Virus record (IMG/VR): IMGVR_UViG_3300037501_000255
DNA: 64,000 bases
From: a virus
Taxonomy: Duplodnaviria > Caudoviricetes
Direction: 5' to 3' (one strand)
The notes under the pieces are model-generated. The model ran no database searches. It saw only the letters and a list, made by a program, of their open reading frames with translations, and was not told the DNA's origin. How positions within the stretch are numbered: position 1 is the first letter of the stretch; every line of letters begins with the position of its first letter. Both the position numbers and the translations under genes were made by a program. Below are positions 24,898 through 64,000 of the stretch, one piece after another.

Positions 24898-24905
24898 TCT
24901 AGCTC

Positions 24906-28954: not shown

Positions 28955-28965
28955 TCTTTACCTCA

Positions 28966-31734
28966 TTATATCAAAAGATCTGCAATTTGAGATGAGGTTA
29001 CTTTGGTTACCGCGTCTTTAAATCCGGCTTTCTTAAGACTTACGGAAATAACTATTCTTGTGCGCAACTGCGGGAGAGCACTGCTCTCTTTTATATTCTT
29101 GCAGTGTAGACGCAATAGCCCAGTTGAGTGGTCAATGTAAGTACCAATGATCTCATCTGATATAAAATACCCGTCGTTATAGTCGTAGCCATCTAGATCC
29201 TTAGAGAAAGAGCTTATGGCAACTTCAAATCTAACTTGATTATCTGCAATGGCAGATGAGGCCACATAAGTGCCATCAGAGAAACGCATCTTACCCAAGA
29301 CAAGTGACGAGAATATATTGATCTCGCCAACAGTATCACCTGTCGGCAATTCCAATTCGATAATGTTCTTTTCAAAATCCAGAGTATGCACGGAGCCATC
29401 AAGATGCTTAATATCTCCAGTCAGATACACATCTCCTGGTATAAATGCACTGTTTAGGCCGCCATTCTCAGGGGAGCTCTGCAAGTCTGAGAGATCGAAA
29501 TCTATAAATGTCGTCGTGACAAATCTACGCAGATCAAGCACTTCGATACTATCACAATCCCATGTTGGCACGAAGTTTATTTGGAACGTTATAGGCGAGA
29601 ATGATGTGTTGTTTACAAGAGTTGTGTCCTCGCTATGGATTGCTAGTGTCGACTCTGCTGTTGTTGTCAGTTTTGAAAATTGATTAAATAGCGGCTCAAC
29701 CGTCAGTCTAACGCGCGTAAACGATGAGCCAGCAGTGAAGCCTGTGCCATTATTAAGGTATTGCGTTAGCTCATACCCATCATCGGCGGCCGTGACGTAA
29801 CCATCGCCCGACACATCAGCGCGCAGCAGCTCAGCTACGCTTACGGCCCCATTTAGCACAGCCTGTAGTTGAGTTGATGGCGAGACCGTGCCCTGATTAA
29901 GATTGGGGGCATACCCATCCAACTCAACCAGACGAGCCGCATCTTCTAAGCTGATTACGCCGTCGCCATCCAGATCACCGTAAATATCAGTGAGGATTTC
30001 CTGCTTTATTATCCTATATTTCTTAGTTGGTTGCAATGTGTTTGGGATAATGGTTGACCCAACCACGTTTTGAACCAACAAGTCTGATCCCGGATTGATG
30101 ATATCAAGCGTGTTGTTGATCGCCAAAGCCGGGTAGAGCAGACTTCCAGATATTTGTGGATTGTTTTTCGGATTTCTGTCGCGCATTCTACCTAAAAGTA
30201 GTGGCTTGAGTCCGGAATCTAGGAGATCGCTTACACTGTCTTGCTCGAGTGCGGATATTAGGGCTACATCCGTTTGGCGGGATGCCTGGCTGTCGCCCGT
30301 CTTTGGATGTGCTATTATGTCAGAATATTCTTCTGTATTCTGAAGAATGATATAATTCTCCGCATCTTCGGAAGTATTAACTAGCGGTATGTTATCTGCA
30401 AACCGCTGTACCGTTACCGCGTTATTGTCTAGCTCGGTTTTTGGTTCAGCGATTCGAATGCCGGCATCATATGCAATACCGCTGGCGGCAAAGGCCCCGG
30501 CCGTCCATACCTGGAACCACATTGACTTGTCTGCTACATCCGTCCAAACTCCGGTATCAAATACGCTAAGGCGCAGGTCTGCGTTAGAATTGCGCGCTTC
30601 TGGAGTAACAAGCGTGCCAGTCGCAGTAGATCCTAGACGACGTATCGTGATGGCGTAGAATTGCCCGTCTACCAGCCCACTAAGAGTGGGATTGCCTAGT
30701 TTTGTACCTGAAAATACAACGTCAATTATCTTATAATTTGTATCTAGTACAATCCCTTGATTAAGCAGATCATTCTGAGTTAGTGTAATTGTCTCTATTG
30801 AGTTTACATCTGGATCGAATGCTATCTCCGTGTCTGGCAGATAATCCGTCGAAACCGAAGCTGTATCAAGAAGTGGTCTGAGGCCAACCTCTAGCGAGCC
30901 GCTCCATGATGTGCCGGAAGATAGTGCAAATGCTAGCGATATTTTCTGTATGTTATTGCCGCGCATCTTGAACTTCTGCGCGAGCATAAACGCAGTGTCG
31001 GCACCTTGGGTAAATTCGCGTGTAGTCGCCGTTGTAGTGTTAACGTTAAGATCGTCTATATCATTCGCTGGCCCCAGTGCCGCCACGAGTTCCTCATGAA
31101 GGCTCTTGGCTACTTCGGATGTTTTAAAGTATGCAAGGCGTAGATCGGGTTCTGCTATCTGCTCGGCTGCGATACATCCGCGATCAAGTCGAAATGATGA
31201 GGCCTCGGTAAGAATGAGTCTTCCGCCTACATCAAAACACCCATAGCCATCAATAGATGTATTTTGATTTCCACGTAAATTTTGTGTTAGAATATTCGTA
31301 ACTTCAATAAAGTGATTTCTAGTTATCTTGGACACGTTGTCATTTAATTCAACCATCTCATAAATCAAGCTGTTGTCGAAAGTTTTGCCTAATATTAGAA
31401 CTGATGTTTTCAGGATGCCATCAACTCTTGCATCTGACAGGGTCACGGCCAATTGATTGCCCCCAACCCTGTCTGTGCACAGATACGGCGAGCTTAGCAA
31501 GCCCTGTCCGTCAAACGTATTAAGTGCCTCAAGCCCTTGCTGAAATGCGTCGAGTGAATCACTGTCAAAAATGACGGGCTCTTCCGGAAAGTCAAGCTGA
31601 ATTCCGCTTCCGGCGACGGTGCTGGCGAGGGCTGCGGTGTTTTTGAGGTGAAATTCCTGCTCAGTTTGCAGGTCATCCTTGCTTACCTGCATAAAATCGA
31701 AGAAATTGTTACGTTTTAGTAATTCAATAGTCAT
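28966..31734 (-). CDS. Putative virion/baseplate-associated protein with a dockerin-like Ca-binding pair
   Basis: Last gene of the tail operon. Contains YGDLDGDGVISLEDA and ADVSGDGYVTAAD...LTQYL, and 6 DGY motifs. Confidence 0.65.
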   Translation of the reverse strand: MTIELLKRNNFFDFMQVSKDDLQTEQEFHLKNTAALASTVAGSGIQLDFPEEPVIFDSDSLDAFQQGLEALNTFDGQGLLSSPYLCTDRVGGNQLAVTLSDARVDGILKTSVLILGKTFDNSLIYEMVELNDNVSKITRNHFIEVTNILTQNLRGNQNTSIDGYGCFDVGGRLILTEASSFRLDRGCIAAEQIAEPDLRLAYFKTSEVAKSLHEELVAALGPANDIDDLNVNTTTATTREFTQGADTAFMLAQKFKMRGNNIQKISLAFALSSGTSWSGSLEVGLRPLLDTASVSTDYLPDTEIAFDPDVNSIETITLTQNDLLNQGIVLDTNYKIIDVVFSGTKLGNPTLSGLVDGQFYAITIRRLGSTATGTLVTPEARNSNADLRLSVFDTGVWTDVADKSMWFQVWTAGAFAASGIAYDAGIRIAEPKTELDNNAVTVQRFADNIPLVNTSEDAENYIILQNTEEYSDIIAHPKTGDSQASRQTDVALISALEQDSVSDLLDSGLKPLLLGRMRDRNPKNNPQISGSLLYPALAINNTLDIINPGSDLLVQNVVGSTIIPNTLQPTKKYRIIKQEILTDIYGDLDGDGVISLEDAARLVELDGYAPNLNQGTVSPSTQLQAVLNGAVSVAELLRADVSGDGYVTAADDGYELTQYLNNGTGFTAGSSFTRVRLTVEPLFNQFSKLTTTAESTLAIHSEDTTLVNNTSFSPITFQINFVPTWDCDSIEVLDLRRFVTTTFIDFDLSDLQSSPENGGLNSAFIPGDVYLTGDIKHLDGSVHTLDFEKNIIELELPTGDTVGEINIFSSLVLGKMRFSDGTYVASSAIADNQVRFEVAISSFSKDLDGYDYNDGYFISDEIIGTYIDHSTGLLRLHCKNIKESSALPQLRTRIVISVSLKKAGFKDAVTKVTSSQIADLLI

Positions 31735-31743
31735 AATCCCTCT

Positions 31744-34700
31744 TTACTCCACAAAATTAACATATGCCCGTGTATGTGCCGGCTTAATTCTACCAATTAG
31801 ACTCTCGATGAGGGTCATGGCAATGGCATTATTCATAATTACATCAAATGAGTCTACAACGTTAACATCAAAGCTGGACAGGTGCGTGCTGCGAGACAGC
31901 AGGTTTGATAGGAATTCCGTTTCAACAACATTCTTATCAAAATCATATATAGCTGTAGTTAATGTATCTTCTATTACAGGCGATGCCGCTTCAAGATTCG
32001 ACTGATAGTTAAGATCTAGACTCTGCCCCGCTACTACAGATGGTTGACGATCACGCAAGGAGAATCTAACATTATCCATTCTAGCCATTGCATTACCGGT
32101 ACCCTCATAAGAGTTGCCTAGCGTAATATTTGCAAGAGTATCTTTAATATCTATATTTGTAGTCATGAAGTTTGAGTCAATTACGCCACTTGATCCGTAA
32201 GTGACTCCGATACCGTAGTTGAGGCCGGGCGAACCCCAGGTGATGACACCGCCCTCTACCCCGTCTACCCATAGACGCATACGATCCTTATTATCCTGAT
32301 TATTTACATTGTACGTAGCCATTACGCGGTGCCACGTATTTCTAGCCCAACCTATAGGATAGGATATAAGGCTGGTTGATACCGATGAGCGTATTTCGAA
32401 ATTAAGGTACCCGTACCCATCCTTGTATATAGATATACGATCGCCAAGAGCATCTATTGGTGTGTATGCTACACTGACCAACGTATTCTGGGTTGGAAGC
32501 GCCTGTTTGAGCGTGATCGTTTTGCCGTCCAAGCCTAGTTTACTGTCTTGAGCATAATCTACGCCTGAACCGGTGTCGGTTACAAGACGAATGCTGTTAA
32601 TGCTTCGGGCACGATTAATCAACTTGATGGTGTTCCTGGTGATTGAAGTCACCTGTACGGACTGCATGGATGTAATATCCACATAGTATCGTGTGTTTTC
32701 CATATCATCATATACGTCAATTGCTGGGCTTATCCAGAATTCTATTGTGCCAGCATCCTGACGTATTATACCATCATCATTAGAGAATATTACAGGCTTT
32801 TCACCAGTCAGAACAATGCAGTCTCCAAATGATGCATTGACACTGCGACTATTGGTTAAATATTTTCGATTATATGTCTTATATGTATCAGATGAATTCA
32901 ATTGGTTATCATCGAATTGTAATAGAAGTAGCGTTTGAGGTGTTGGGGCGGCCGGTGTGGGCTCCAGATAATATCTTGTTATCGACTTCTCATCGGCAGG
33001 GGGCTCCTCGCCCGCGCGCACGTCCATAAGCATTTCATTTAACATGTGCACTTCATCTATAGTGCCGTTAAGTGCATTATTACCATTTATATCTGTACCT
33101 ATACACAGCTTTCCTTTAGAATCCAACTCTATTGTTAGTGGAGTAGGGTATTCTATCAAATAGAATGTTGGCTCAAGATTGAATGGCAGACCGCCGCTAC
33201 CAAAAATGAGCAGGCGGAAGTTTCCGTTATAGTAACTCAGTATTTGAGCATAGTCTCCATTATTTTCTGAGCGTGTAAGCGATACATCTTCAACGATCTC
33301 CACAGCGCCCAGGGATTCGTACCCATCAAAACCATTAAATGTAAACGCTATAGTGCTGATGGATGTGAAGTAATTTGTTGTTACAAAATTTCCATATCCA
33401 GTAAATGTTACAGTTTCAGCTAATGGTCCAAAACCAAAAACAGTGCCCGTAATTACCGCCTGATTAATGGAGCTGAAGTTTATGTTGTTTGTGCCATGTA
33501 GAGTCAAGCGCAGACGTTTTCCGGCTACAGTATTAGATGGCTGCGGTACAGAGGCGAATGTGCCTGTAATTGTCGTCCCCGATTGGACAAAGTATCCATC
33601 AGTTATATAACCATCAGAATTATCTTCTATAGAAATGCGATCAAATATATATTTGTATATATCAACGTTCAAAAGCGACTGTGGCGGAATAAAGTTTGTT
33701 TTTAATCGATTATCTGATGTATATTTATATATCTTATCTCTGATGCGACCACGCGTCAATCCCAATGTATTGACGAAAACACGATCACCTACCGATACGC
33801 CTGAATTAATTTTGAGAATATTGGAGCCTGCTGTACGAGATACTGTGTATTGCGGATTGGTCGCGCCTAGGCCACGTAACTCTATTGGCTCACCGCCCGC
33901 AGACTGTGTATATACAGCGAATGGCTCGAGATCAATATCCGCTGTCACTGAGAGAGAGAGCTGATTTGCTGTCCAATTCACATTAGATAATGAAAGTGTA
34001 AGTGGAGAGGCTAGAGTTACCTGCGTCTGACTCAATATACTGGTGATTGTGTGTGGGCTCGCCGCGCCATCGCTGGTCGGGTCTAGAATGACAAGCTGAT
34101 CTCCGATATTAATACCGTTCGTGATAAACGCTGCCGAAGAAGACGTAAATATGTTTGACGCTGCGACAGTTACGCCGTCGGCGCCGCCAATTGTATTTTG
34201 CGTGGCAGAGCTTAATATTTCTTCTGTCGCATTTGTACGATAGAGATCAGTGCCTAGGATTGGTGCAGGTTTACCACCGAACTTCCAATTGTTTGCTACT
34301 TCTTGACCATCAATAAATAGATGCATCTCGTCAATGCTATCTGCCGAATTAAATCTCCAAGAGAGTGCAACCTGATGATCTTCTCCTGCTAGCCAACTCT
34401 GAATATTCGCAGAAATGGCATATGCTCGTGGGCGGGCCGGTCGTGTGCGCCCATTTTTATCAAAAACTCTGCCGACAATATAACCTGAACCATCTTTAAA
34501 TAGAGAAATTCTATTATGAGTGGTACTTAGGCCTGTATCAAAAATGTAGTGTATGTTGTCAGATGAAAGGTCTATACCGTCAGACAATAGATATCCGTCT
34601 ACACCATCATATCCGTCGATAGTTGTGGAGAATTTTATATAGTTATCTGTAGTATAGAAAGCGTCAGACACCTCATTGATAAATAGGTTGCTGTCATATC

Positions 34701-37700
34701 CATCAGTTATATTGTAGAATTGGCCTGTTGTTGTGATTTCTGTAGTAAAGTCTACACCGTCACTCGCCCAAGCCTGCCAGCGCATCTTCCAACGATTTTC
34801 TATATCATCATACCATATAAAATATCCCTTATCAGTACTTATATTATATGGCCTTCCAATTGGACTATTGGGGTATGGGTCAAAACGTGATACTGTAAAC
34901 GGCATTCCTAATGGATTGAATGCTGTTTCACCTATAAAGATGTCTCCTAATGACAGCGAGTAGCCGTCATTAAGACCATAATTGTAGAACCAATTCATCC
35001 CATCATATCCGTCGTAGCCGTCGCCTATCGCATAACCATCTTGTGTTATATGGAAGGTGAGTGAGGCGTCGTTGTCTAGACCCCGCCAGTCTGGCGCCAG
35101 AGTTGTAATAAATGTGCCTTCACGGTGTGAGACGTATGCTTCTGCCGGGTATTCTATCAAATCCCCATCGGCTATATGCGCACCGATATTGCGGCCTGCA
35201 GGACGGTATTCTACACTCCCGCCAGTGCGCGGTGGGGCGAGGTATAGGTTGTCACGATCGGCAGTCCATTCGTTGAAATCCAGCTCGCGTATAACCGGGT
35301 CAACCTTAGTAATGCTTGATACCATCTTTGTGATAGCAGCGTTCGTCGGGCCCGTTAGGAATGCCTGAAGGGCGCCGATTACGGCACTGCGATACATCTC
35401 TCGGTCAAAGCTAAGATCGAATGTGGTGAGTTCCGGAATTTGTGTGAGGCTACCAAAGTTAGCCAATAGCGCTTGGCGTAATGCACCATAACGATATGTG
35501 ACGTAGTACTCGTCACCATATGACAGGGTGTCACTTATGCTAAAATCTAGTTCATTATCTCCATATTCATAGCTAACAATTAAACTGTCATAGACATAAT
35601 CATAGTTAAAGAATAGATTTCCAACATCGTAATCTATTAACAATGCATCCCCCGCCGTGAGTGTTGCCACAAGCGGATTTCGCATTGTAATCGTGTTGCC
35701 ACTAAATGTGTCGACTGACGGGTCATAGTAATTTACCAGCTGATGTGCCGGGAGTGTCTGTAATTCGTTTATAGAATAAATACCATTGATGCTACGTATG
35801 TCAAAATTAGTTGCTGCCGTATATCCATCAGAAAAATCAATATCGAATAGTGACCATTGTACTGATTTATCACTATCGGTAAATGGAAGATCTACTACAA
35901 CTGTGTTGGTGGACAGGACTGCTGTGATTTGTCTATCGAAATCATCTGGAAATCTAATGTAGTGATACCCGTCCGCATGCGAGTTGGAGAATGCGGCGTC
36001 CAGAGCCACAAATGTTGTCGATCCAACAGTTCTCTGCCCCTCAACTCCATGCTGTTTCAGACCCAGTATGCTCAACTTATTTGTATTATTTGATAGGAAT
36101 CTTTCTCCAGCTGGAAGAAGCGAGTTAACATCTACATAATCTGATGTATTTGAAAAATTTGCAATGTCATATATTGATTCTGTTACGTTGGTTAGTTTGT
36201 ATGAGACGCTATTGACACCAGATATCCGTGGGCGCTGCGTGTAGTGGCGCGCGTGGGCGTAGTTAATCTCTCCAAATAGTTCATTATCGACATCTGTACG
36301 TAGATATACTGAGCCAGATTCATAATCTATTAAATAGTATCCATCTGAACTTAGCTTTAGCAAGTTTGCTGATAATGTTTGAAGTGCACCATCGTAGAAA
36401 AATTCAGATTGGAATATATCTGTGTTTGTAAAAGAGACTGATGAGTTTACCGGCGAACCTATGTACTTTCCAGTGGCAGAGACAATTTTTGAATTTTTGA
36501 GTTCGAACTTAACTATTTTACTAGTTAATGAAGTCGATACGACTTCGGATACAATTAGATTCTCACCAACAACCCTCTCAAAATCAGCAAATTCATTCTC
36601 GACTGTTTGAATTCTAGGCAGTTGTGAGCCGGATATCTGAATCATATAATCATTGAATCTATTAATCAGATATCTCTCACCAGTAGTTTCGTTGTATACA
36701 CGAAACGCATTTGTTATTGGATAATGCTTTGTGATGATCTTATTTGCAGATAGTAGTCTGTTTTCTACCAGCTCATCTATAACTTCCTTATGTACTAGAG
36801 CTAGATAATCTGTGCCCTCGGCTAGGACAAACTCGTAGTCGAATGTAATTTTTGTATTAGTCAGTCCAATTAGATTTCGCAGTGAAATCGCAGCTAGTTC
36901 ATCGGTATCGGGCTCGAATGTATAGTCTATTCCGCTAATGAAATATTTTCGATACGTATAATTTGCTACCGGCGGCACTCCGCCTGTACCATTATTTGTT
37001 GTAGCGCCATATACGAAGACCTGACCGGTTTCGTAATTAATGCTGTATTCGCCAGGAGCTGATGGGAGGCGAGCCTGATCATAAGCTATTTCTTTATTGA
37101 ACGCTGGGTGAGTTGTGGTGTAAGGAATGCCCGATGGTGGATTTGGATCTAGAAATACCACTCCAGCACTGGTTGCGACCACATCTGAGCTGGTTACAAT
37201 TGGGGCATAATTTAGGAAAAATGTATTCTGAAGAGCTCCTATCGGTTCACGCACTACGCTATTTAATTGTGTAACTGAAACTGTATCTGAATTAACATTA
37301 ACGCCATTATGTATGTATGAATATGATACGACCAGCGTGTCTGTGGGCTGTGGTTCTGGAAAATATCCATCTAGTATTGCTGCTTCAGATAACTTAAATT
37401 GTCTATTTGACAATGTTTGTAGCGACGTGGCATATTGAGTATCATATCTATTGTTCAATACTGAGTACTTATATCTAGGAATATCATATATGTACTCATT
37501 GAAATTAGAATCAATGAGTTTTATAGCATGTATTTGCGCTATATTTGACTTTGATAGTGTTATTATAGTATTTTCGAATGAGTTTGATACAGTTTCAGTG
37601 TTGGAAACGTTTTCCTCTTCAATATATACTGACCTAAGTGAGATCGGATCTGGCGGAAAGGACGATATGACGGGGTTCGCCTTGTAATAATCATCGCCAA

Positions 37701-38331: not shown

Positions 38332-38334
38332 TTA

Positions 38335-41553: not shown

Positions 41554-41561
41554 TTACGTTC

Positions 41562-41993
41562 CTATATCTGTATATCAAAGACTTCACGGATAACGCTTCC
41601 CTTTTTCGTTGTGACATCAATAACAATGTTATATTGCCGTGCATCATAAAGACTTCGCTGTACCTTTACATTCAATATTTGACTTAGCTGCTCATTTGGC
41701 GTTAGGTACTGTCCGTCTTTCAGCTGTAGTGCCTGGAGTTTCATCAAATTCGTCAAACAGAAATTTACAGCATCAGCTACCTCTGTTTCTAGAATATTAA
41801 ATGGCATTGCTTTGCCGATCACTCTGTCCCCCAACGGGCTCCCATACCACGGATTAAGTGCGGAGCTGCCTTGAGAGGTTAGAAGTATCTTTACGATATC
41901 TTGTTTTAGCTTGTCTTCATTGAAGATACGCTGAAGGGCGCCGTCGGAGCCGAAGCTGAAAGAGCCGTTGACTAGTTTAAGATCAAATGACAT
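41562..41993 (-). CDS. gp25/GPW-like baseplate protein
   Basis: LKQDIVKILLTSQGS..LNPWYGS; size and position also fit. Confidence 0.85.
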   Translation of the reverse strand: MSFDLKLVNGSFSFGSDGALQRIFNEDKLKQDIVKILLTSQGSSALNPWYGSPLGDRVIGKAMPFNILETEVADAVNFCLTNLMKLQALQLKDGQYLTPNEQLSQILNVKVQRSLYDARQYNIVIDVTTKKGSVIREVFDIQI

Positions 41994-41997
41994 GCAC

Positions 41998-52182: not shown

Positions 52183-52191
52183 ATACTACCT

Positions 52192-53160
52192 CTACCTTCG
52201 CAAATCCAACCCCTTAATATTTACACCATCTAGGCTGGCAGCGGCACCGCGCATATTATTGGCATCAAAAATATCCACAGATAAGGACATGTCCGCCCCT
52301 CCACTTCTCTCACCGGCCTGCTGGTTTACTTCCAGTATTGGCAGTGGCTGATCTAGTTCAGTGAAACTGTATGGGTTAGACGGACCCGCCGGTCCTTCTG
52401 GTTGTTTGTGCCATGGCATAAAGTTATGTCGAGATCCTTGACGCGCATATGCTACAAACTCTATGTCGTAATCGAACCACCCCAGCTTCTGCGTTGACTC
52501 AGTCACGTTAAAACTTTTGAAGTATCCACGATACAGAACTCCTTGAAAAAACATATCTATATTGGATGCCAGCGATGCTAGCGTGGGGCGCGGTCGATTA
52601 AGTCCATTAAATAGTTGCGATGTTATTTGTAATACATTTTGTCCAAATAGAAAGCCATTCCCTTCTGCGCTGCCAGAGTTGCCCAGGCCTGTGATGAAGC
52701 TGCCTATGGCTTGATCTAGCTGTACATTTGATAATTGCTCTTCTAGTGCCGCAGCTATACCTTCAAAGGCAAGCTGTTCAGATCTGTATATGGATTGCAG
52801 GATATTGATGCCCTCCATGCCCGCAGAGCCTGTCGTTCCATTTAATATAATTTGATCTAGGTTTTCACCGCCATACTGAACAACGAATCCGCCCTTGGTT
52901 CTCATATTCTGTATGATTTTTGAGCTCATGATTTTAATCTGTTGCGGATTTATATACATCTGTATGTAGCCCAAATGTGGCGTCCTCCAGGTCACCATCT
53001 CTCTGACAACTCTTCCTACGTGAGGACGATCTATGAGATTTAGTACCGAAGCATTAACTTTACCAGATGAGGCGCTGATCGATGCCGCTCGATTCGCAAG
53101 TAGCTCCGGATTTGCCAATGTAGGTTCTGGCGGAAATGGGTCTAATGGTTGAAATGCCAT
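52192..53160 (-). CDS. Tail tube initiator / tube-like baseplate protein
   Basis: MYINPQQI, RTKGGFVVQY, YRGYFKSFNVTES...FDYDIEF. Lies between the tape measure and the hub. Confidence 0.7.
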   Translation of the reverse strand: MAFQPLDPFPPEPTLANPELLANRAASISASSGKVNASVLNLIDRPHVGRVVREMVTWRTPHLGYIQMYINPQQIKIMSSKIIQNMRTKGGFVVQYGGENLDQIILNGTTGSAGMEGINILQSIYRSEQLAFEGIAAALEEQLSNVQLDQAIGSFITGLGNSGSAEGNGFLFGQNVLQITSQLFNGLNRPRPTLASLASNIDMFFQGVLYRGYFKSFNVTESTQKLGWFDYDIEFVAYARQGSRHNFMPWHKQPEGPAGPSNPYSFTELDQPLPILEVNQQAGERSGGADMSLSVDIFDANNMRGAAASLDGVNIKGLDLRR

Positions 53161-53175
53161 ATGTGCTCCGATACT

Positions 53176-55485
53176 TTATGTTGCTACTGACTGCTTTATT
53201 TCTACTCGCAATTCTCTCTTAATTGAAGAAACCACCGCTTTTATACTATCTCCATCTATCTTAAACGATATTGGTATCTCCAACTGTTGAGCCTCAAATT
53301 GCAGCGCCGTGGGCCCCTGCCTGGTGGCTGTGGGCGGCGCTGTTGGCGCGGAGGGCGTCGGCGTTGTTACGGGCGTGTTTGGTGTGGGTACTGCGGGAGT
53401 TTGCAGTGATTCTACCTGCGGTGGAACCGGAGCTTGAGGCACCTGCAATACCGGAGTCTGCACTCCCTGTCCGGCATATCCTGCGGGTGATATGCCCATG
53501 TTGGCATAATCAAGCTGTAGACGGCCTACGTTCAATCCATAAGCGCTCTCCATCTGCCTGACACTTCTAGTTGGCAGCGTATTGTACTGTTCAATCTCTC
53601 TTCCAGTAGCGAATGGTAATTGCTGGCTTTCCCCTACAGTGCGGGTTGAAGCATACAGGAGTTGTGTGTCTCTTGCAACATCTGCTGTTGATGGAAAAAG
53701 CTTTGTGCGCAGCATGCTGCCTTTAGCCGCTCCACCTTCACCAATTATTAATTCTGGGGTAGCTAAAATTTGCTGGGCCGCGGCAAGGTCTGCATCCTCA
53801 GCAGCCATCGCGCCAGGCCGGGTGGTGGATTTGTCTACCACTACTTTGCCAACTGAAGATTTAACCTGATCAAAAATCACTCTTGCCGAATCTCGAATGG
53901 TATTTGCGGCTTGTTGATATGATGAGACCATCTTTCCCAAAGCCTCGGCTTCTTCTGCGCGCATTTTATTGACAAGCTGTTGCTTTACTCCAGTCTCCAT
54001 ATCTATTCTGGCTTGCCCAACTTCCATAAGTTGTTGACGACCTTGCTCTAGCGCTTGCGGGCCCGCAAAGACCTCAGTAGATCGCTCAATTTCCCCGCGT
54101 TGCATGATGCCCAGCATGGTATCTAATTTTCCAGTATCGCTCTGGCCTGTAATTGTTTGAAGCAACTGTCTTTGTAGGAGATATTGCGACTCTTGTCCGG
54201 TATCTAGCGCTTGGCGACGAGTTAGTATCTCGCCCCCTCCCATTTGCTCTAACTGTTCACGAATAGAGGTGAATATTTCGCCAGTTCTCCCTTCAGCAAG
54301 CGCTTGCTCTACTTCTAGACCAGCACCAATTGCTCCCCGGCCCTGACCTACTTGAGATTGCATTCCAAGAAATGCTTTTAGTCCAAAATTCATATCATGC
54401 AAATTGCGCACAGTATCTGTAAATAGCTCTTTGCCAAGCTCCTGCCTGCCTTCCCCTACAGATTTAACGAATGCATTGAAGGTATTTGATAAGCTTTCAA
54501 CTGATGTGCCGTAATATCTAAGCTGTGAGGCTGAACCCATGACTGATTCGGATACGTTCCTCATCGATAGTCCGGTCCCTCTCTGCGCAAGAGATAGAGC
54601 TGCGAACAGTGTGCTTGTATCTGATGCGCTGCGACCTAGTTGACGTATATTCAGCTGTACATACTCACTAATCTTGCCCATTTCAAGGCCTGTAGCTTTT
54701 GATAATCTAATTGCAGCTGTCAGGCCATACATCCGTTCGCCTGTTGCGGTAGTGTCCCCACCCATTTTACCAAACACTTCGCTTACATCTATACCTGCGG
54801 CGGTTAGAGACCCCATAGAGGCACGTGTAGCTTCAACACTCATGCCCAACTGTTGCGCCGAGCGCGCAGAGTTGGTTAAAGCCTCCTCTACTCGGGTAGT
54901 AAATTCTTCGCTACCCAAACCTGCGGTTGCAAATGCGCCTCCAAGATCGACTATACCTGGAGCAATACCCTTCACTTGTGCAGTAATCTGAGATTCTAGT
55001 TTCTCTATCGGCTGAAGCAGCTCATCGACCAGCGGCGCGCCCAACTTAAACACCACCATCTCTGCCAAGTTTACACGATTTGCTGCGAGCAGGCGCTGTA
55101 TTTCGCCATTCATTTTCGTAGCCTCTCCCGAGGCTACGCGATATGCATTTTCAAACTCTTCACCTAAAGCATCTGAATCGATACCTATTTCGCTTAAATC
55201 TATACCAAATGCTGACTGGGCTAATTTTTTAAGCTCATCACCAGCCTTGCCTGCAACGGTTGCTATATTTTTGAAAATAGTATTAGCATCCTCTTCTAAG
55301 TCGCTAAATGCAGATTTCAATTCGCCAACACTATCTTCCATGCCTGGAAATAGATCTACTTTGTCGCCTGCCACATCTCCCAATTTTTTAGCAAGCTCAA
55401 CTATACGAGCCAGTATCTGCTCTACCGCCTGCAGCTTTGCAGGATCTGGTAGGTCTGGGTTTGTTGGATTCGTAGGATCAGCCAT
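53176..55485 (-). CDS. Tape measure protein
   Basis: Ala/Gly/Gln-rich and predicted helical, directly downstream of the chaperone pair. C-terminal Pro/Thr-rich linker. Confidence 0.8.
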   Translation of the reverse strand: MADPTNPTNPDLPDPAKLQAVEQILARIVELAKKLGDVAGDKVDLFPGMEDSVGELKSAFSDLEEDANTIFKNIATVAGKAGDELKKLAQSAFGIDLSEIGIDSDALGEEFENAYRVASGEATKMNGEIQRLLAANRVNLAEMVVFKLGAPLVDELLQPIEKLESQITAQVKGIAPGIVDLGGAFATAGLGSEEFTTRVEEALTNSARSAQQLGMSVEATRASMGSLTAAGIDVSEVFGKMGGDTTATGERMYGLTAAIRLSKATGLEMGKISEYVQLNIRQLGRSASDTSTLFAALSLAQRGTGLSMRNVSESVMGSASQLRYYGTSVESLSNTFNAFVKSVGEGRQELGKELFTDTVRNLHDMNFGLKAFLGMQSQVGQGRGAIGAGLEVEQALAEGRTGEIFTSIREQLEQMGGGEILTRRQALDTGQESQYLLQRQLLQTITGQSDTGKLDTMLGIMQRGEIERSTEVFAGPQALEQGRQQLMEVGQARIDMETGVKQQLVNKMRAEEAEALGKMVSSYQQAANTIRDSARVIFDQVKSSVGKVVVDKSTTRPGAMAAEDADLAAAQQILATPELIIGEGGAAKGSMLRTKLFPSTADVARDTQLLYASTRTVGESQQLPFATGREIEQYNTLPTRSVRQMESAYGLNVGRLQLDYANMGISPAGYAGQGVQTPVLQVPQAPVPPQVESLQTPAVPTPNTPVTTPTPSAPTAPPTATRQGPTALQFEAQQLEIPISFKIDGDSIKAVVSSIKRELRVEIKQSVAT

Positions 55486-55813
55486 CGATCAACTCTTCCT
55501 TGGGTAGTTCCTTACCAAAGTGCCGCGCGAGAACATCAGTAAATACTTCGGGATCACTTTCGGGACGACTCTTCTTGCTTTCGCGTGCTTTCTGAACGCG
55601 CTCGACGCCCTCTGGATTCGAAAATGATGCTAAGTAATCTATGTACTCTATTGTTTTATTAGATGCTTCTTGCATATCCTGCTCTATCATGCAGGCATAC
55701 CATTGTAATTCAAAAATGGGCAGAGAGGCGATCTTGGGATCGCTCACCGGGACTCCCCATGCTTTTGATAGCTCCCATCTGACCCGGTGAGTGGGGTCAG
55801 TGGTCAGCTCTTT
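55478..55813 (-). CDS. Tail assembly chaperone, -1 frameshift extension (lambda gpT-like)
   Basis: The frame of the 55478-55747 ORF is open upstream through the slippery site and reads KELTTDPTHRVRWELSKAWGVPVSDPKI... Confidence 0.85.
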   Translation of the reverse strand, partial: KELTTDPTHRVRWELSKAWGVPVSDPKIASLPIFELQWYACMIEQDMQEASNKTIEYIDYLASFSNPEGVERVQKARESKKSRPESDPEVFTDVLARHFGKELPKEELIDG

Positions 55814-55819
55814 AAAAAA
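55743..55819 (-). promoter_or_regulatory. Programmed -1 ribosomal frameshift signal with a downstream pseudoknot-like structure
   Basis: TTTTTTAAAG at 55819-55810 contains two overlapping heptamers, T_TTT_TTA and T_TTA_AAG. Stem CTGACCC/GGGTCAG (55800-55779); its loop CTCACC is complementary to GGTGAG at 55748-55743. Confidence 0.85.
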
Positions 55820-56415
55820 CTACGGCTAAACTCCTTCTCAACTTCGCGTTGTACGCTAGCAGAGAATGCCATGAGTGCCGTAACCATAAATGCAGGCCAC
55901 CTCGACAGCTCGGAATACTTCCGCAACATTGGGTCTTTTATTGAATCTTGCCCAGTATAGAATTCCTCAAATGCAATGCCGTTAACAGATATCAGCGATG
56001 CAGCTAAACCCATAACTGAAGCTTGATAAGCCTCGGTGAGGTCTGCTTGTTGTAGCAAATCTAGTATTTTAGCATTATCATTAGATTTTAGAACTTTGAA
56101 TCTAAACGTTAGCCCGCCATACTCAATATCCTTAGTCTGGTCTTGGCTAAGAAACATAAGCTTTTCAAATGCTATTTTCTTTTCTACCTCTTTTTTGAGG
56201 AGCGGGTCTTCCGGTAGAGAGGGTTCCTCTGGGGCGGAGGTTGAGGTCGGCGATTGAGCAGCTGCCTGCTCCACATCTGCCATTTGCTTGTCGAAAAGAG
56301 CGTCATCGTCATCCGGAGGGGCGACGGTATACACTTTGGGGGCCGACTGCGCTTCTGCCTGCTCTGAACCTGGGGCGTGGGTGAAATTTGACATGGACGG
56401 GTGTGTTATCTTCAT
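55804..56415 (-). CDS. Tail assembly chaperone (lambda gpG-like)
   Basis: Lies between tube and tape measure. Ends AGT TTT TTA AAG AGC TGA. Confidence 0.85.
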   Translation of the reverse strand: MKITHPSMSNFTHAPGSEQAEAQSAPKVYTVAPPDDDDALFDKQMADVEQAAAQSPTSTSAPEEPSLPEDPLLKKEVEKKIAFEKLMFLSQDQTKDIEYGGLTFRFKVLKSNDNAKILDLLQQADLTEAYQASVMGLAASLISVNGIAFEEFYTGQDSIKDPMLRKYSELSRWPAFMVTALMAFSASVQREVEKEFSRSFLKS

Positions 56416-56426
56416 CGCTATACTCC

Positions 56427-56465
56427 AAAAATAAATATGCCCTAGATATATACATCCAGGGCATA
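56427..56465 (-). terminator. Intrinsic terminator after the tail tube gene
   Basis: TATGCCCTGGAT-GTATAT-ATCTAGGGCATA forms a 12-bp stem with one G-U pair, followed by TTTATTTTT. Confidence 0.75.
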
Positions 56466-56488
56466 CATTATGAGGCTATGAACCTAGA

Positions 56489-57169
56489 TCAGCCGCCGCC
56501 GAAAATTGGGGCGTCATTGAGCAGCAGACCAAGTGATGCTGCATCAAGCGTACCTCTACGACCTACGTCAGTTGTGGTTTCAATGTTATAAGCCAGATTG
56601 CCAGCTCCAGGACCACCGAGATAACCGCTAAAGAAGTCGTCTCCGGGTAGGGCGGGGGAAGTAGTGCCGTTAGCGAAGTAGGTTACCACATCCTCAGGAA
56701 TAATAGTAGCTTCTTGAGTGATAATGTATTCGCGTACCTGATAGCTGCCAGAAAGTTGTGTAAACCAGCAATTTTTGTACTCATGTATTACCATGCCTGG
56801 CGAGTTAGCGACGGGAGAGAAGTCGGGTGCTTCGCCGGCTTGCGCATACATTGTATCAAAAACCTTGATGGTGAACGGTATACGCTGTGACTTGATATTA
56901 TGGAATGGACGCCCGAATGCCAACGGTAGGCTGAGGCCGTCAAACGTGATACGTGTAACGGTAAGCTCTACTTCTGGTGCGGAATTTGGCACGACTTCCA
57001 GGACGCCATCGAACCCAACTTCGCTGACACGTTGAACAGTACGATTCTGACGGATCGTCATGTTCTGAATAGCGCCGACCTTCTTGTTATCAACCTCTAC
57101 CAGAATCTGGGTAGACAACGAAGTTGAGATGAATGTCTCAAGCCTCGAATTTGTATTTGGGTAAGCCAT
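56489..57169 (-). CDS. Tail tube protein
   Basis: Follows the sheath. ILVEVDNKKVGAIQNMTIRQNR...EVGFDG..EVVP, and YKNCWFT. Confidence 0.88.
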   Translation of the reverse strand: MAYPNTNSRLETFISTSLSTQILVEVDNKKVGAIQNMTIRQNRTVQRVSEVGFDGVLEVVPNSAPEVELTVTRITFDGLSLPLAFGRPFHNIKSQRIPFTIKVFDTMYAQAGEAPDFSPVANSPGMVIHEYKNCWFTQLSGSYQVREYIITQEATIIPEDVVTYFANGTTSPALPGDDFFSGYLGGPGAGNLAYNIETTTDVGRRGTLDAASLGLLLNDAPIFGGG

Positions 57170-57196
57170 TTATCCTCTCCTCAATCCATTCTTAAA

Positions 57197-59761: not shown

Positions 59762-59839
59762 TCTCCTTAAGAACTGCCTAGATTATTATCTATATTCAGA
59801 AGCATATTAATTAGTAGAGAGCACAACTGTCTGTATATA

Positions 59840-61107: not shown

Positions 61108-61117
61108 AATGCTGTTC

Positions 61118-64000
61118 CTATGATGGTATTCCTGTTCCTGCGTGAATATTGTTGGCTGTAGTTGGACTGTCAGCGAGCACGCCTGCAACGGCAAGCACCC
61201 CGGATGAGGCGGTCCCTGACGTATTCCCCCATGCAAGTAGGTTGGTGCTGCCACCGGTAATCGCAAAGGGGCCGCCCGTTGCCGTCCATTGCAAGGCGCT
61301 GTTGAATGCTAGTAGACTTTGATTTGCAGCAGCAGCGAATACCGTCAATGACGATGGGAGGATAAATTGTGATGTAATATTCCCGATTATGACCAGTCTA
61401 CCTAGATCATTTGCCGCAGTAGATGCTGCAAATGATATTGTATCAAACCTATTATTTGATATATTTACTTGTGACATTAGTTTTGGGAACGAAACAGTTC
61501 CCAGTCTGTTGCCTGAAATACTACTTAAGTTGAATGATCCTGTGCTGCTAAATGCTGAGAAGTCGACATCATCCAGTTTGTTGCCTGTCATGACCAATTC
61601 TGTCAGATCGCCATTGGCTGTAGATGAGGTAAATGATACATCTCGTCCTACATTACCGCTAATTGCCAGTCTCGCCATCCCTCTTGTGCCAGAATTAAAT
61701 GCTATCGTACTTGCCGTATTGTTTCCATTTATTACAACATCCTGTATGGAATATATGACGGCGGCACCCCAAGCTTGCATGTCAATACCAACATTTTCCA
61801 TTGTATTGTTATTTATACTTATATTTGCTAATGTTTCGCCATTTATAGAGAATGCATCAGATATCAAATTATTATAAATATGCAAATAGCTTATATTTGT
61901 GCCACTATTGACAGTGCCAAGCGCTAACTCACCAAGCACATTAGAGCTGATGTCTAAGTTTGTAAATGTTTTACTAGCTATTGATGAACCTCCTCGCGCC
62001 ACAACCTGCGCTGCGCTATTTCCTCTTATGTTCAGACCCGTTACATCCGCACATTCGCCTATATCTGAAAACATCCAGATATATCCATCCACTGTATTCT
62101 CTATAATTGAGAGGTTTGCAATGCTATATGATGATGATCCCCCGATCTGCAGCCTAAATATCGGAATATCTCCGGTTTTATTGCGTGCTATTATTACATT
62201 GTTAAGCGCGCGAGTCTCTGCATCAAAACCGCTATTTTGAATTTTTAGGTTTCCGGTAATTATATTATCTGTAATATTGCAACCATCGATGCCATTTGAA
62301 GATAATGCTACTGCGTTAAATAGTGCAAGGTCTTGCTGAACGTCGTTGTGTGTTACTGTAAGGCCCGAGCTTCCCGTGATCGGGTATACGCTTAAGTTTG
62401 CTACATTATTGCCCTTAATTCTGGTGTTTAGGATTGTCCCGCTAAGTAATATGTCGAGGCCGTACGTCTGATTGTCCGAAATTAGGCAGTAGCTAGCGCC
62501 CGACGTGAATGACATGCCAACATCAGAATTCCCGGCAATGATGCAGCGATCCATACTCCCGGAGGTGGAGAGCGTCTTTTGTGAGAACTTATTTCCTATT
62601 ACAGAAGTGTCGTTAATTGTCGTCGCCGCTGATAGCGAAACATCTGAGCCGAAATAGTTGTTCTCTATTATATTATTCCCAGTTGCAGATGAATATACAA
62701 CATAGGTGCCTGCACCGGCCGAGGAGGCGCTTAATATGTTGTTTGATATAATAGACCGCTGCCATACAGCTGAACTTGAATTTGTTGCGCTAACAATCTT
62801 ATTGTTAGATAATATTGAGTTGTATATATTGTTTCCAGTATTGAAGTACAGTGTTTCAATAACATTGCCATCGATAACACAATCCGTCAGTGTTGTTGAA
62901 ACGTCAAATCTGAGCGCTGTCTGAATAATGTTGTCAGCTATTGAGCATAGAGACATCGGCATTTGTATTCTTAAGCTTGATCTCACATAATTACCAGATA
63001 TTCTGATACGAGTTAGCGATGATGCTGCTGAGAACATTAAATCTGTACTTGTATCTAAATATGAGTTATTTGAAAATACGCTATTAGCTCCTAATCTTAT
63101 TATAGTATTTGAATTTATTCCTGTTTCAAATACGTTATCTGTTATTATGAGCGGGCCCTTGTCAGCCGAGAATGTCATGGCCGTCTGCCCCTCAAATGAG
63201 TTGCCGGTTATAAATATAGGCTCCGTACCCCCACCATCCTCGCTAAAGTCAATGCCGCAGCCATTAGTGGCGGTGCCTGTAAAAATATTCCCTGTAATAG
63301 TAATTCTTCCGGCTTTTTGATCTATAAGCAATTTTCTAACAAAATAGTTGTTTGCAATAGTAATGACAGATTCTCTATTTGATGCACTAGAATTTACGTA
63401 TACATTAAACCCTATCGCAGCGTCTACGAATGTGTTTCCGGAAATTTCTCTCGCTAGCCGAGCGGCGCCAGCAGGTGTTGCGTCAAATTGTGCAGAAGAG
63501 AGGCCGGTGTTGCCACATACCATACCGCTGGTACCGGTGATACCTAAATTCAAGCCGGTCATTGAGCCGCGATTGTTTAGAAATTTTGTCAGAGAAGCGT
63601 TTATGATTGTGTTGTTTGAAAAATTACAGTCGTCAAACACGCAATTATCTACATTTAATAGGTGTTCCGTGGAATTGCAGTGAAAAAGTTTCGCTGTTCC
63701 GCTAAGCACTACGCTGTAAAATGTGCTATTTGATATGGTTGCGTCAGTTTCCGGAGCGACTGGCGAGCCTGCAGTTATTATATTACCTGATGATGCTACA
63801 ACATTCGTGAAGGAGCTAGCGGTGATGTTTATGTTGCCAAGTAAAATGAGCGTTTTAGCTACTCCGTCCCCATAGAAATTACACCCGGTAATACTCAAAG
63901 CACCCGCTTTAGACCATAGCTGTCCGAAATTGCCGCTTGGCCGGAAGGATGTATTTGCGATCGAGCTGCTGGGTGTGCTTGCGTCATTGCATGTGAGAGA
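61118..64000 (-). CDS. Right-handed parallel beta-helix protein (tailspike/fibre-like); N-terminus lies beyond the window
   Basis: Dozens of I-x-G/D/N-N repeats. The track start at 63898 is an internal TTG, and the frame is open to the window edge (LTCNDASTPSSS...). Confidence 0.8.
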   Translation of the reverse strand, partial: SLTCNDASTPSSSIANTSFRPSGNFGQLWSKAGALSITGCNFYGDGVAKTLILLGNINITASSFTNVVASSGNIITAGSPVAPETDATISNSTFYSVVLSGTAKLFHCNSTEHLLNVDNCVFDDCNFSNNTIINASLTKFLNNRGSMTGLNLGITGTSGMVCGNTGLSSAQFDATPAGAARLAREISGNTFVDAAIGFNVYVNSSASNRESVITIANNYFVRKLLIDQKAGRITITGNIFTGTATNGCGIDFSEDGGGTEPIFITGNSFEGQTAMTFSADKGPLIITDNVFETGINSNTIIRLGANSVFSNNSYLDTSTDLMFSAASSLTRIRISGNYVRSSLRIQMPMSLCSIADNIIQTALRFDVSTTLTDCVIDGNVIETLYFNTGNNIYNSILSNNKIVSATNSSSAVWQRSIISNNILSASSAGAGTYVVYSSATGNNIIENNYFGSDVSLSAATTINDTSVIGNKFSQKTLSTSGSMDRCIIAGNSDVGMSFTSGASYCLISDNQTYGLDILLSGTILNTRIKGNNVANLSVYPITGSSGLTVTHNDVQQDLALFNAVALSSNGIDGCNITDNIITGNLKIQNSGFDAETRALNNVIIARNKTGDIPIFRLQIGGSSSYSIANLSIIENTVDGYIWMFSDIGECADVTGLNIRGNSAAQVVARGGSSIASKTFTNLDISSNVLGELALGTVNSGTNISYLHIYNNLISDAFSINGETLANISINNNTMENVGIDMQAWGAAVIYSIQDVVINGNNTASTIAFNSGTRGMARLAISGNVGRDVSFTSSTANGDLTELVMTGNKLDDVDFSAFSSTGSFNLSSISGNRLGTVSFPKLMSQVNISNNRFDTISFAASTAANDLGRLVIIGNITSQFILPSSLTVFAAAANQSLLAFNSALQWTATGGPFAITGGSTNLLAWGNTSGTASSGVLAVAGVLADSPTTANNIHAGTGIPS

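Follow-up and report, generated by a model that had tools for sequence, protein, structure and literature searches.

The window, by which we mean the entire 64,000-nucleotide stretch of phage DNA analyzed here, carries a module of minus-strand virion genes next to a short group of sugar-related genes (Table 1). The tripeptide Asp-Gly-Tyr (DGY) occurs 28 times in six of the virion ORFs (15+6+3+2+1+1), whereas composition predicts about 1.2 copies, and the remaining translated minus-strand ORFs of the window contain none. A first-pass annotation, made from the letters alone, had listed exactly these per-protein counts and had estimated about one chance copy in the giant wedge-like protein; recomputation from the Asp, Gly and Tyr contents of that protein (7.4, 6.9 and 5.6%) gives 0.63. 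Its '926-aa beta-helix' with one copy is correct for the part inside the window, but the full ORF encodes 2038 residues and six DGY. Similarly, its observation that non-virion genes lack the motif stands as a count, but the depletion is not significant (about 1.3 copies expected in the window and 1.5 on the contig). The significant contrast is with the density in outer proteins, 4.7 DGY per 1000 residues, which would predict about 49 copies in the non-virion ORFs.

Table 1. Coordinates of the sugar-related genes and the virion module, with DGY positions given as residue numbers
Feature	Position	Strand	Remarks
Rest of sugar-related cluster	24040..27204	-	Two GNATs (156, 189 aa); 212-aa unknown; 229-aa ORF with marginal nucleotidyltransferase N-terminus; 285-aa SDR, dehydratase/epimerase-like
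GT4-family glycosyltransferase, 388 aa	27306..28472	-	Glycos_transf_1 (3.6e-10), Glyco_transf_4
Last tail/baseplate protein, 922 aa	28966..31734	-	6 DGY: 162, 606, 644, 652, 848, 854
Giant wedge-like baseplate protein, 2195 aa	31744..38331	-	Strings of beta-sandwich modules; 15 DGY: 321, 663, 787, 835, 1098, 1104, 1107, 1122, 1210, 1239, 1245, 1573, 1578, 1669, 1971
Dense DGY patch in wedge, residues 1098-1247	34591..35040	-	Seven DGY, including back-to-back DGYDGYDG
Baseplate J / gp6-like wedge protein, 1072 aa	38335..41553	-	2 DGY: 552, 645
DGY-free block, mostly inner tail	41562..57169	-	PHROG matches, several weak: gp25-like wedge (143 aa); unknowns of 489, 599 and 646 aa; 322 aa; 1658 aa (weak PHROG matches including lysin-bearing tail protein); tape-measure-like (769 aa); chaperone-like (203 aa); virion structural protein read as tube-like (226 aa)
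Tail sheath, 854 aa	57197..59761	-	Pfam and PHROG sheath C-terminal domain; 3 DGY: 184, 425, 480
Protein upstream of sheath, 258 aa	59840..60616	-	1 DGY: 126
Small conserved transthyretin-like protein	60613-61266
2038-aa protein, C-terminal part	61118..64000	-	Runs off the window; contig ORF 27620-33736

The 854-aa carrier is the sheath of a contractile tail: over about 320 residues its core fold resembles the sheaths of phi812, pyocin R2, T4 and Mu (Z 25-33, rmsd 2.5-3.0), and Foldseek gives E 1e-16. All three of its DGY lie in the roughly 530 residues added to this conserved core, and in its AF2 model (pLDDT 87) they occupy hairpin turns. The wedge, in which DGY is the top tripeptide, gave a weak Laminin_G_3 match in domain searches and, in structure comparison, weak matches only, to CBM-like beta-sandwiches. 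An AF2 model of its residues 1040-1700 (pLDDT 84) places 10 of 10 DGY at strand ends or loops. Its dense patch is modeled as an irregular loop (pLDDT 60-74, residues 59-85 of the model), and several sites there fall within lineage-specific insertions; the best-conserved wedge sites are residues 1098 and 1245, present in 72 and 81 of 115 sequences, respectively.

The 1072-aa protein matches Baseplate_J (2e-18, residues 66-251), phrog_6 (residues 5-288) and phrog_4226 (residues 957-1039), with its DGY pair between the conserved N- and C-terminal parts. One DGY pair of the 922-aa protein lies within a dockerin/EF-hand-like loop; region 585-651 of this protein matches Dockerin_1 at E 0.0013, under the Pfam cut-off. 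The 258-aa protein, called terminator-like in the first-pass annotation, matched no family in Pfam and PHROG profile searches; it has homologues in relatives G001, G002, G004 and G005, and the equivalent ORFs of L010, L014 and L016 carry DGY at a similar position (residues 120-131). Mapping DGY onto predicted structures, a check that the first-pass annotation had proposed, thus put all 13 modeled sites of wedge and sheath at strand ends, turns or loops, and from secondary structure together with substitution patterns we infer that the tyrosines are probably exposed to solvent.

Between the baseplate J-like protein and the sheath, the mostly inner-tail block contains no DGY in about 5,050 residues, where about 24 would be expected at outer-protein density. 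ORF counts confirm that outer and inner virion proteins do contrast, and relatives also have an equivalent DGY-free block downstream of the sheath, with one exception: in G001, homologues of two of the block's unknowns carry 3 and 1 copies. Portal and terminase have no DGY. DGY enrichment is absent from tube-, chaperone- and tape-measure-like proteins as it is from non-virion proteins. The best-conserved unknown, considered in the search for the capsid protein, was set aside as a PrkA-like protein.

Selection at the protein level

On the 97,323-nt contig, we counted 69 DGY, all within the virion module, compared to 4.1 expected from composition (P ~2e-58). The enrichment runs beyond the region delimited in the first-pass annotation, into about ten further fiber-like or virion proteins. 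A first-order Markov estimate is 12 copies, and 2000 runs of within-protein shuffling, a control that had also been proposed at the outset, yielded a maximum of 13.

The pattern GAYGGNTAY has 71 matches on the coding strand of the contig, 69 of them in frame, and 2 on the other strand. Neighboring wedge copies at residues 1098, 1104 and 1107 are coded by GATGGTTAT, GACGGCTAC and GACGGATAT, which bears out the earlier remark that adjacent copies use mixed synonymous codons. Because the signal is in frame and its codons are mixed, selection acts on the protein rather than on DNA, as had been proposed; a relative with 56% GC, which has 105 DGY versus 13.7 expected, supports the same conclusion. 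A cause at the DNA level is ruled out by this combination of frame and strand specificity, mixed codons and persistence at 56% GC. We give next to no credence to the possibility that the excess is an artifact of composition, DNA or annotation: DG and GY dipeptides are somewhat frequent in the carriers, as the Markov estimate reflects, but the observed count far exceeds both that estimate and the shuffle maximum, the signal is independent of GC content, and the sites are conserved above background.

The motif is also specific. Single-position variants on the contig are at or below expectation (DGF 4, DGW 0, NGY 1, EGY 1, DAY 1), and SGY, AGY and YGD are at expectation along with NGY, DGF and DGW. 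Over 246 sites, D-G-Y itself holds 12 bits of information and each flanking position at most 0.13 bits. Hydrophobic residues are mildly preferred at -1 and -3, and across these sites neither Asp/Asn at -2/-4 nor a conserved acid downstream is enriched. Three strict positions without flanking context are the sequon-like behavior that the first-pass annotation had described. The window's own phage is strict, whereas one lineage has relaxed the motif to D-[G>A,S]-Y: DAY reaches 22 copies versus 4.7 expected in G002 and 11 versus 3.2 in G001, and DSY 13 versus 4.0 in G001, with the excess in both genomes found only in proteins that carry DGY.

Distribution and turnover among relatives

DGY enrichment is common to a large clade of uncultured jumbo phages. 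In the outward-facing tail, baseplate and fiber proteins of this phage and its relatives, the tripeptide occurs at about 15-20 times the chance level. Coding-strand counts in six relatives are 90-130, versus 1-8 on the opposite strand. Sheath homologues contain 229 DGY (18.8 expected), and 120 full-length wedge homologues contain 980 (64 expected), distributed across 142 alignment columns. A distant sister group still shows a 4-5-fold excess in the same outer proteins, in which DGY is the top tripeptide (13 versus 3.2 and 15 versus 2.8 expected in homologues), while the remainder of its proteome is at expectation.

Individual sites are gained and lost by lineage, chiefly within insertions and loops, yet those that exist are under purifying selection: in pairs of sequences at 60-80% identity, DGY is kept in 65-74% of cases compared with 32-33% for all tripeptides, so that sites are retained 2-3 times better than other tripeptides. 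Insertion columns of the wedge alignment hold 26% of DGY sites versus 5% of residues, a five-fold excess, and sequences without the motif at DGY columns have NST, DPN, DGT, NGS or DGE instead. Among sheath homologues, nearly all sequences keep DG at q423, and two of three clades keep it at q478. The Tyr at these turns switches by lineage, being replaced by E, V, S, A, Q or T while the turn is retained. One clade has a sheath without DGY, with Tyr replaced at both conserved DG turns; the genome of G006, a member of this clade, is still DGY-rich. In a sister clade, a new sheath DGY has been built from an xPD loop. Inheritance of a repeat domain is ruled out as the source of the sites by their spread over 142 columns, many insertions and unrelated module types.

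We rejected Phage G as an experimental model: its homologous tail module (3 DGY in 8.6k residues) and its genome (33 versus 21.8 expected) are not enriched. Its block gp420-431 has 14 DGY versus 2.2 expected, a block chosen after the counts were seen.

Sugar genes beside the tail module

The GT4 gene lies two genes after the last DGY-rich protein. Homologues 36-44% identical occupy the same position in G001-G005, each a few kb from a homologue of the 922-aa protein, and GT4 stands beside tail genes in all six genomes checked; in G001 it is duplicated. In structure comparison the resemblance to solved GT4s is limited to the donor-binding half and thus does not point to an acceptor. The low-density sister clade likewise has the gene in syntenic position, and GT4 presence does not track DGY density.

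Beyond GT4, profile matches of the cluster are weak except for the 189-aa GNAT and the SDR. The SpsF-like gene named in the first-pass annotation drew marginal hits, and Maf found no support; Maf and GT8 were not found in any genome searched. By tblastn, the non-GT4 members have no homologues in G001, G002, G004 or G005, bar a weak, partial SDR match in G001 (2e-05); of the whole cluster, GT4 alone is conserved clade-wide. The proposed link of DGY to a neighboring GT4/SpsF cluster, which was to be judged by co-occurrence across related phages, is not supported in the form given. Covariation of DGY with the window's sugar cluster was discarded for the same reason.

The four relatives compared have genes for GDP-mannose dehydratase (Gmd) and an epimerase/reductase in their core set; the 97 kb covered of this phage's roughly 370 kb yielded neither. 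In G001 and G002, large soluble glycan islands adjoin the tail genes, and the islands differ between lineages. The Wzy_C domain (PF04932) is absent from G000-G005 and was found in 10 of 14 control genomes.

A candidate modification sequon and its alternatives

Judged by its sequence patterns, DGY has the look of a tag for recognition or modification that has not been described before: a short linear motif that would be presented in exposed turns, loops and insertions of outward-facing tail, baseplate and fiber proteins and read by one shared trans-acting factor. The interpretation that we favor, tentatively and short of calling it probable, is that DGY serves as a sequon, marking an exposed Tyr for covalent modification; the clade-conserved GT4 and GDP-sugar genes beside the tail genes are possible sources of the activity. 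A soluble enzyme in the infected cell would recognize Asp-Gly-Tyr on folded or folding virion proteins and modify the Tyr hydroxyl. Among candidate chemistries glycosylation leads, although unproven, because GT4 (six genomes) and Gmd with an epimerase/reductase (four relatives) are conserved. The outcome would be a tail surface with many modified sites, whose number per protein is tuned by site gain and loss, comparable to the turnover of N-glycan sequons on animal-virus surface proteins. The single partner, its enzymatic nature and the Tyr glycosylation chemistry are all what we infer from the behavior of the motif. The fuller proposal, in which a new cytoplasmic Tyr-modification system with a DGY sequon, strict except for its relaxation to D-[G/A/S]-Y in one lineage, coats the outside of the tails, baseplates and fibers of the clade and site number evolves in the manner of a glycan shield, is possible but slightly more speculative.

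Known sequons include Asn-X-Ser/Thr, which is also used by cytoplasmic NGT/HMW1C-type enzymes, and the Bacteroidota O-glycosylation motif D-(S/T)-(A/I/L/V/M/T); to our knowledge, no three-residue sequon directed at Tyr has been described. DGY resembles these systems in its three residues, its sparse flanking context, its enrichment on a defined class of surface proteins, its location in exposed regions and the gain and loss of positions while density holds. It differs in that Asp-Gly precedes the candidate acceptor Tyr, and in being known here from sequence alone. Our literature search found no paper connecting DGY with phage biology. Mycobacteriophages encode glycosyltransferases and carry glycans on their virion proteins, which are proposed to form a surface shield (Freeman et al. 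2023, via PMC12619734), and the same account places the glycans at the C-termini of capsid and tail-tube subunits. Relative to that account, DGY is internal, multi-copy and Tyr-centered, and the tube-like protein, portal and terminase lack it. The targets of phage glycosyltransferases may instead be DNA or the glycans of the host envelope (PMC12619734).

The first-pass annotation had pointed to Tyr O-glycosylation of Gram-positive S-layers. In Paenibacillus alvei SpaA and Thermoanaerobacter, this occurs at 2-4 sites per protein in variable sequence context, and a membrane O-oligosaccharyltransferase transfers the glycan, assembled beforehand on a lipid carrier, in the course of secretion (PMC2943079). 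The systems share the Tyr hydroxyl as the (here candidate) attachment point on a repetitive surface array. The analogy is a poor fit, however: DGY has up to 15 sites per protein in an invariant D-G-Y context, the phage records lack a Wzy_C gene, and virions assemble in the cytoplasm. A host-encoded enzyme of this type is conceivable, but it would act outside the cytoplasm (PMC2943079).

Much of the evidence for a single reader would apply equally if DGY turns were non-covalent docking sites for a shared decoration or cement protein, a fiber adaptor or an assembly chaperone, namely three-position specificity without flanks, the outer versus inner contrast, purifying selection and lineage-specific drift at the middle position. 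The core genes of the clade include one for a GroEL-type chaperonin, and the module contains the small transthyretin-like protein (Table 1). We nevertheless judge docking unlikely: lattice decoration usually needs fixed positions, whereas DGY turns over across its many columns, often in insertions; copies that follow one another at a three-residue spacing leave too little room for proteins to dock independently; and a candidate partner was not found. Slightly less likely again is a role in which Asp-Gly turns, in the manner of Tyr-rich antibody loops or carbohydrate-binding modules, display an exposed Tyr that makes weak, multivalent contacts with matrix or with glycans of the host surface; such contacts would hold a large virion close to its host. 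The sites do lie on outward-facing proteins, the carrier beta-sandwiches are nearest, weakly, to carbohydrate-binding modules and a LamG-like domain, and the D/G/Y-rich patches look like binding loops. Generic stickiness, however, predicts Tyr in many contexts, and SGY, AGY, NGY, YGD, DGF and DGW remain at expectation; the strict D-G-Y order, together with the concerted absence at the sites of one protein, speaks for a specific reader and against a diffuse physical property.

The Asp-Gly pair classically forms tight turns, and DGY could be a purely structural beta-hairpin or Ca-binding turn inherited with beta-rich modules. The conservation of DG at q423 and q478 of the sheath, the hydrophobic preference at -1 and -3, which fits a preceding strand, and the dockerin/EF-hand-like pair of the 922-aa protein all agree with this idea. 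We consider it very improbable for several reasons: NGY, DGF and DGW, which form turns just as well, show no enrichment, Tyr is swapped while the turn stays, neighboring inner tail proteins have none, the homologous tail proteins of Phage G are not enriched, and new sites appear de novo in loops and modules of unrelated types, which speaks against inheritance along with a repeat. In the EF-hand/dockerin loop, D-x-[DN]-x-D-G-x-[ILV]-x-x-x-[DE], Asp-Gly occupies positions 5-6 and the next residue binds Ca through its backbone, with no requirement for Tyr at position 7. The one pair in the 922-aa protein fits this pattern and may be a Ca-binding turn, on a match below the Pfam cut-off. The 246 sites show no enrichment of Asp/Asn ligands at -2/-4 or of the downstream acid about seven residues on, and the Ca-binding alternative offered in the first-pass annotation accordingly fails for the population: variant counts and flank statistics rule out a general beta-turn or Ca-loop there.

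If DGY is a sequon, as we favor, it would be the first sequence-defined motif for modification of protein tyrosines and, in phages, the first such tag to span the virion; nature would already supply hundreds of acceptor sites, together with loss-of-site controls. It would offer a handle on the role of many jumbo-phage glycosyltransferases, and a three-residue tag read on folded beta-turns could be useful for site-specific protein labeling. If it is instead a docking or adhesion motif, it would still mark the outward-facing surfaces of uncultured giant virions, surfaces that evolve by motif density rather than position, a mode that we have not seen described for phages.

As a search for the writer, we contrasted the gene contents of G001 and G002 (DGY-rich) with those of G004 and G005 ('poor'), which yielded 154 candidates on a single phylogenetic split. 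This contrast was abandoned since the 'poor' clade is still 4-5-fold enriched in the same outer proteins; the trait thus differs in density, not presence. A tyrosinase search was blank, as were its controls, and a Hanks kinase was found in G001 only. GT2 counts are 4/4/4 in DGY-rich versus 1/2 in DGY-poor genomes, which, with the glycan islands of G001 and G002, is a suggestive clue to the writer and only that.

DGY in the virion proteins of the window's phage

The window spans nucleotides 30854-94853 of a viral record 97,323 nt long, which by the protein collection is part of a jumbo phage genome of roughly 370 kb; Bacillus phage G is its closest cultured relative, at an identity of only 27-31% across conserved cores. 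By ORF calling, the long ORFs lie on the minus strand, with one plus-strand exception. Gene order begins with a 2038-aa protein that is cut by the window edge (its truncated form is the 926-aa beta-helix of the first-pass annotation) and continues through 217-aa and 258-aa proteins to the tail sheath. Tube-like, chaperone-like, and tape-measure-like proteins follow, in a block with three unknowns and a 1658-aa protein weakly matching a lysin-bearing tail protein, and then a gp25-like wedge protein, baseplate J, the 2195-aa wedge-like giant, and a 922-aa protein. Next come a sugar-related cluster (a GT4 glycosyltransferase, two GNATs, a marginal nucleotidyltransferase-like ORF, one unknown, and an SDR), a TubZ/PhuZ-type tubulin, and genes for replication and nucleotide metabolism.

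The first-pass annotation had counted 15, 6, 3, 2, 1, and 1 copies of the tripeptide Asp-Gly-Tyr (DGY) in the window's tail and baseplate proteins. These counts are exact, and the summed expectation across the six proteins is ~1.2. In the wedge-like giant, DGY heads the list of over-represented tripeptides (15 versus 0.63 expected). The whole record contains 69 copies, compared to 4.1 expected from composition and 12 from a first-order Markov estimate, and none of 2000 within-protein shuffles of the record yielded more than 13. All 69 fall within its first 66 kb, the virion module, where enrichment reaches about ten further fibre-like or virion proteins beyond the window.

DGY is carried by the sheath, baseplate J, the wedge-like giant, the 922-aa, 258-aa, and 2038-aa proteins, and upstream fibre-like proteins. 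No DGY occurs across the ~5,050 residues from the tube-like to the gp25-like protein in the window's phage. Relatives likewise have a DGY-free block after the sheath, except that in the complete relative G001 homologues of two of its unknowns bear a few copies; the portal, large terminase, DNA polymerase, and recombinase of G001 have none. The annotated absence of DGY from non-virion genes holds as a count of zero, but with ~1.3-1.5 copies expected it is not a significant depletion; what is significant is the contrast with the density in outer proteins (4.7 per 1000 residues).

Each position of the motif is specific across the whole record. Tyr alone is enriched after DG (DGF, 4 versus 4.5 expected; DGW, 0), Asp alone before GY (NGY, 1 versus 4.1; EGY, 1 versus 2.9), and Gly alone between D and Y (DAY, 1 versus 4.4). 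At the DNA level, GAYGGNTAY matches the coding strand at 71 places (69 in frame) and the opposite strand at two, and every synonymous codon is used. Among 246 sites from three genomes, flanking positions carry ≤0.13 bits each versus ~12 bits in the motif, the sole trend being that hydrophobic residues are mildly favoured at -1 and -3.

Positions of features in the window's phage and its relatives
Feature	Location	Strand	Remarks
2038-aa ORF	contig 27620-33736; in-window part 61118-64000	-	6 DGY in full ORF
HNH endonuclease	window 660-1163	-	
LAGLIDADG-type homing endonuclease-like ORF	window 1882-2994	+	sole long plus-strand ORF; between amidase and DHFR genes
TubZ/PhuZ-type tubulin	window 22596-24059	-	Tubulin 6e-13, TubZ-like_C 8e-12; directly adjoins sugar cluster; kept in 4/4 relatives checked (38-41% identity)
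Fibre-like protein	relative G002, 216238-217629 (L130)	+	five tandem 22-residue repeats, each opened by DGY; 66-nt DNA period
Unannotated giant proteins gp420-gp431	phage G, 316-348 kb (L163)		
GT4 duplicated inside one 754-aa protein	G001, L096:10902-13166 (with island, 297.9-313.2 kb)	-	
13-kb sugar island	G001, L095:17900 to L096:10889		follows the GT4 duplicate
PrkA-like gene	G001, L095:5310-7271 (trio, 282.7-287.3 kb)	-	clade core gene
Flanking genes of the trio	G001, L095:4117-5298 and L095:2678-4120	-	highly conserved core genes
GroEL-type chaperonin	L085:9162-10841	-	Cpn60_TCP1, 3e-75; core gene of all four full genomes compared

Distribution and evolution of the sites

The trait is common to a large clade of uncultured jumbo phages. 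DGY occurs 229 times in 120 sheath homologues (18.8 expected), 980 times in 120 wedge homologues (64 expected), and 234 times in loci surrounding related sheaths (45 expected). Whole contigs of relatives have 90-130 coding-strand matches versus 1-8 on the other strand, and G002, at 56% GC, has 105 in-frame copies versus 13.7. A distant group (sheath ~41% identical) is DGY-poor by whole-genome count, yet in its outer-protein homologues DGY is the single most enriched tripeptide (13 versus 3.2 and 15 versus 2.8), with the remaining proteome at expectation (22 versus 18 and 13 versus 15). The trait is therefore older than the dense clade, and its density variable. Phage G lacks enrichment genome-wide (33 versus 21.8) and in its tail module. 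One run of its unannotated giant proteins has 14 DGY versus 2.2, a significance overstated by post hoc choice of the block; these proteins have no BLAST similarity to the window phage's carriers.

Two of the window's three sheath sites (alignment positions q423 and q478) are conserved Asp-Gly turns, with DG retained at q423 in nearly all sheaths and at q478 in two of three clades. In the query's clade the third residue is Tyr in 58/65 sequences at one turn and 65/65 at the other. A clade of 41 sheaths (P0066-P0118) is essentially without DGY, having E, V, A, Q, S, or T as the third residue at the two turns; 38/41 of these sheaths carry DAY at two further sites. The rest of the genome of one member (G006, the contig of L010) is DGY-rich (95 versus 2), making this clade a natural untagged-sheath control. 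Its sister clade bears DGY in 13/14 sequences at a loop where every other sheath has xPD.

The DGY sites of the wedge family are spread over 142 alignment columns, of which two are broadly kept (72/115 and 81/115 sequences); in other sequences DGY columns hold NST, DPN, DGT, NGS, or DGE. Insertion columns hold 26% of DGY sites versus 5% of all residues, and DGY flanks are conserved below average. Between sequences 60-80% identical, 65-74% of DGY copies are kept, compared to 32-33% of tripeptides overall and 24-47% of DGx or xGY, and at 45-60% identity the figures are 42-50% versus 16-17%; the sequence pairs are non-independent, but the ratio is stable. Existing sites are thus constrained. DAY is moderately enriched in G001 (11 versus 3.2) and G002 (22 versus 4.7), as is DSY in G001 (13 versus 4.0), all confined to DGY carriers, which suggests that specificity has loosened to D-[G/A/S]-Y in this lineage. 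The motif of the window's own phage is strict, without this relaxation.

Structural placement and reading of the motif

The sheath model (pLDDT 87) is that of a genuine sheath. The core common to minimal sheaths comprises ~320 residues, and the three DGY sites are predicted to lie at hairpin turns in the extra ~530. In solved sheaths with added domains, those domains face outward. A modelled wedge segment (pLDDT 84) consists of beta-sandwich modules strung together, and 10/10 DGY are placed at strand ends or loops, the dense patch being in an irregular loop of lower confidence. In other carriers DGY stands ahead of YFAVRA-type strands, in modules that resemble FN3. The motif thus sits in turns of unrelated folds.

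The motif is strict at three residues and free of flanking context, it sits in loops and is limited to outward-facing virion proteins, and its positions turn over although existing sites are under purifying selection; one clade lacks it in concert at the sites of one protein, and the middle residue drifts by lineage. Together these features point to a single shared factor reading DGY, and not to something the fold requires, an effect of composition, or diffuse stickiness. The pattern most closely resembles a modification sequon, a plausible reading that we place somewhat below an even chance. Docking of a shared protein onto DGY seems unlikely, and direct display of Tyr by an adhesion turn slightly more so; a structural or Ca turn is improbable.

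A literature search gave no paper that ties DGY to phage biology. New here are the position-by-position statistics and structural mapping; tests of how the sites evolve (retention, turnover, concerted absence, de novo gain, and drift to D-[G/A/S]-Y); the finding that a low-density sister clade still bears the trait; and negative tests of the sugar-cluster link and of other candidate writer (modifying enzyme) families.

Sugar genes and candidate modifying enzymes

Glycosylation is the leading chemistry for such a modification, on circumstantial links: all genomes checked have a conserved GT4 next to their tail genes, the four relatives compared share Gmd (GDP-mannose dehydratase) and an epimerase/reductase as core genes, and G001 and G002 have large islands of soluble glycosyltransferases beside the tail genes. 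GT4 presence does not follow DGY density, and structure comparison matched solved GT4s to its donor-binding half only. Of the neighbouring cluster proposed as the source of the modification, GT4 is present in relatives, but the other members were undetected in the four relatives searched, save for a weak partial match to the SDR in G001; the SpsF-like call drew only marginal matches and the Maf-like one none. The S-layer precedent fits poorly: Tyr glycosylation there differs in mechanism and has no sequence context (PMC2943079).

The 13-kb island of G001 encodes a 1129-aa multi-GT protein, GT2s, a GT47-like enzyme, a methyltransferase, a DegT aminotransferase, and an RmlA-like transferase. Most of its genes lack a tblastn match in G004 or G005 (the low-density sister group); DegT matches in G005. 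The PrkA-like gene of G001 is a near homologue of PrkA/YeaG-type 'serine protein kinase' (PDB 9xip, E 1.7e-126). The trio that it forms with its flanking genes was not found in the 97-kb piece of the window's phage; it looks like bacterial prkA-yhbH-spoVR, carried by jumbo phages.
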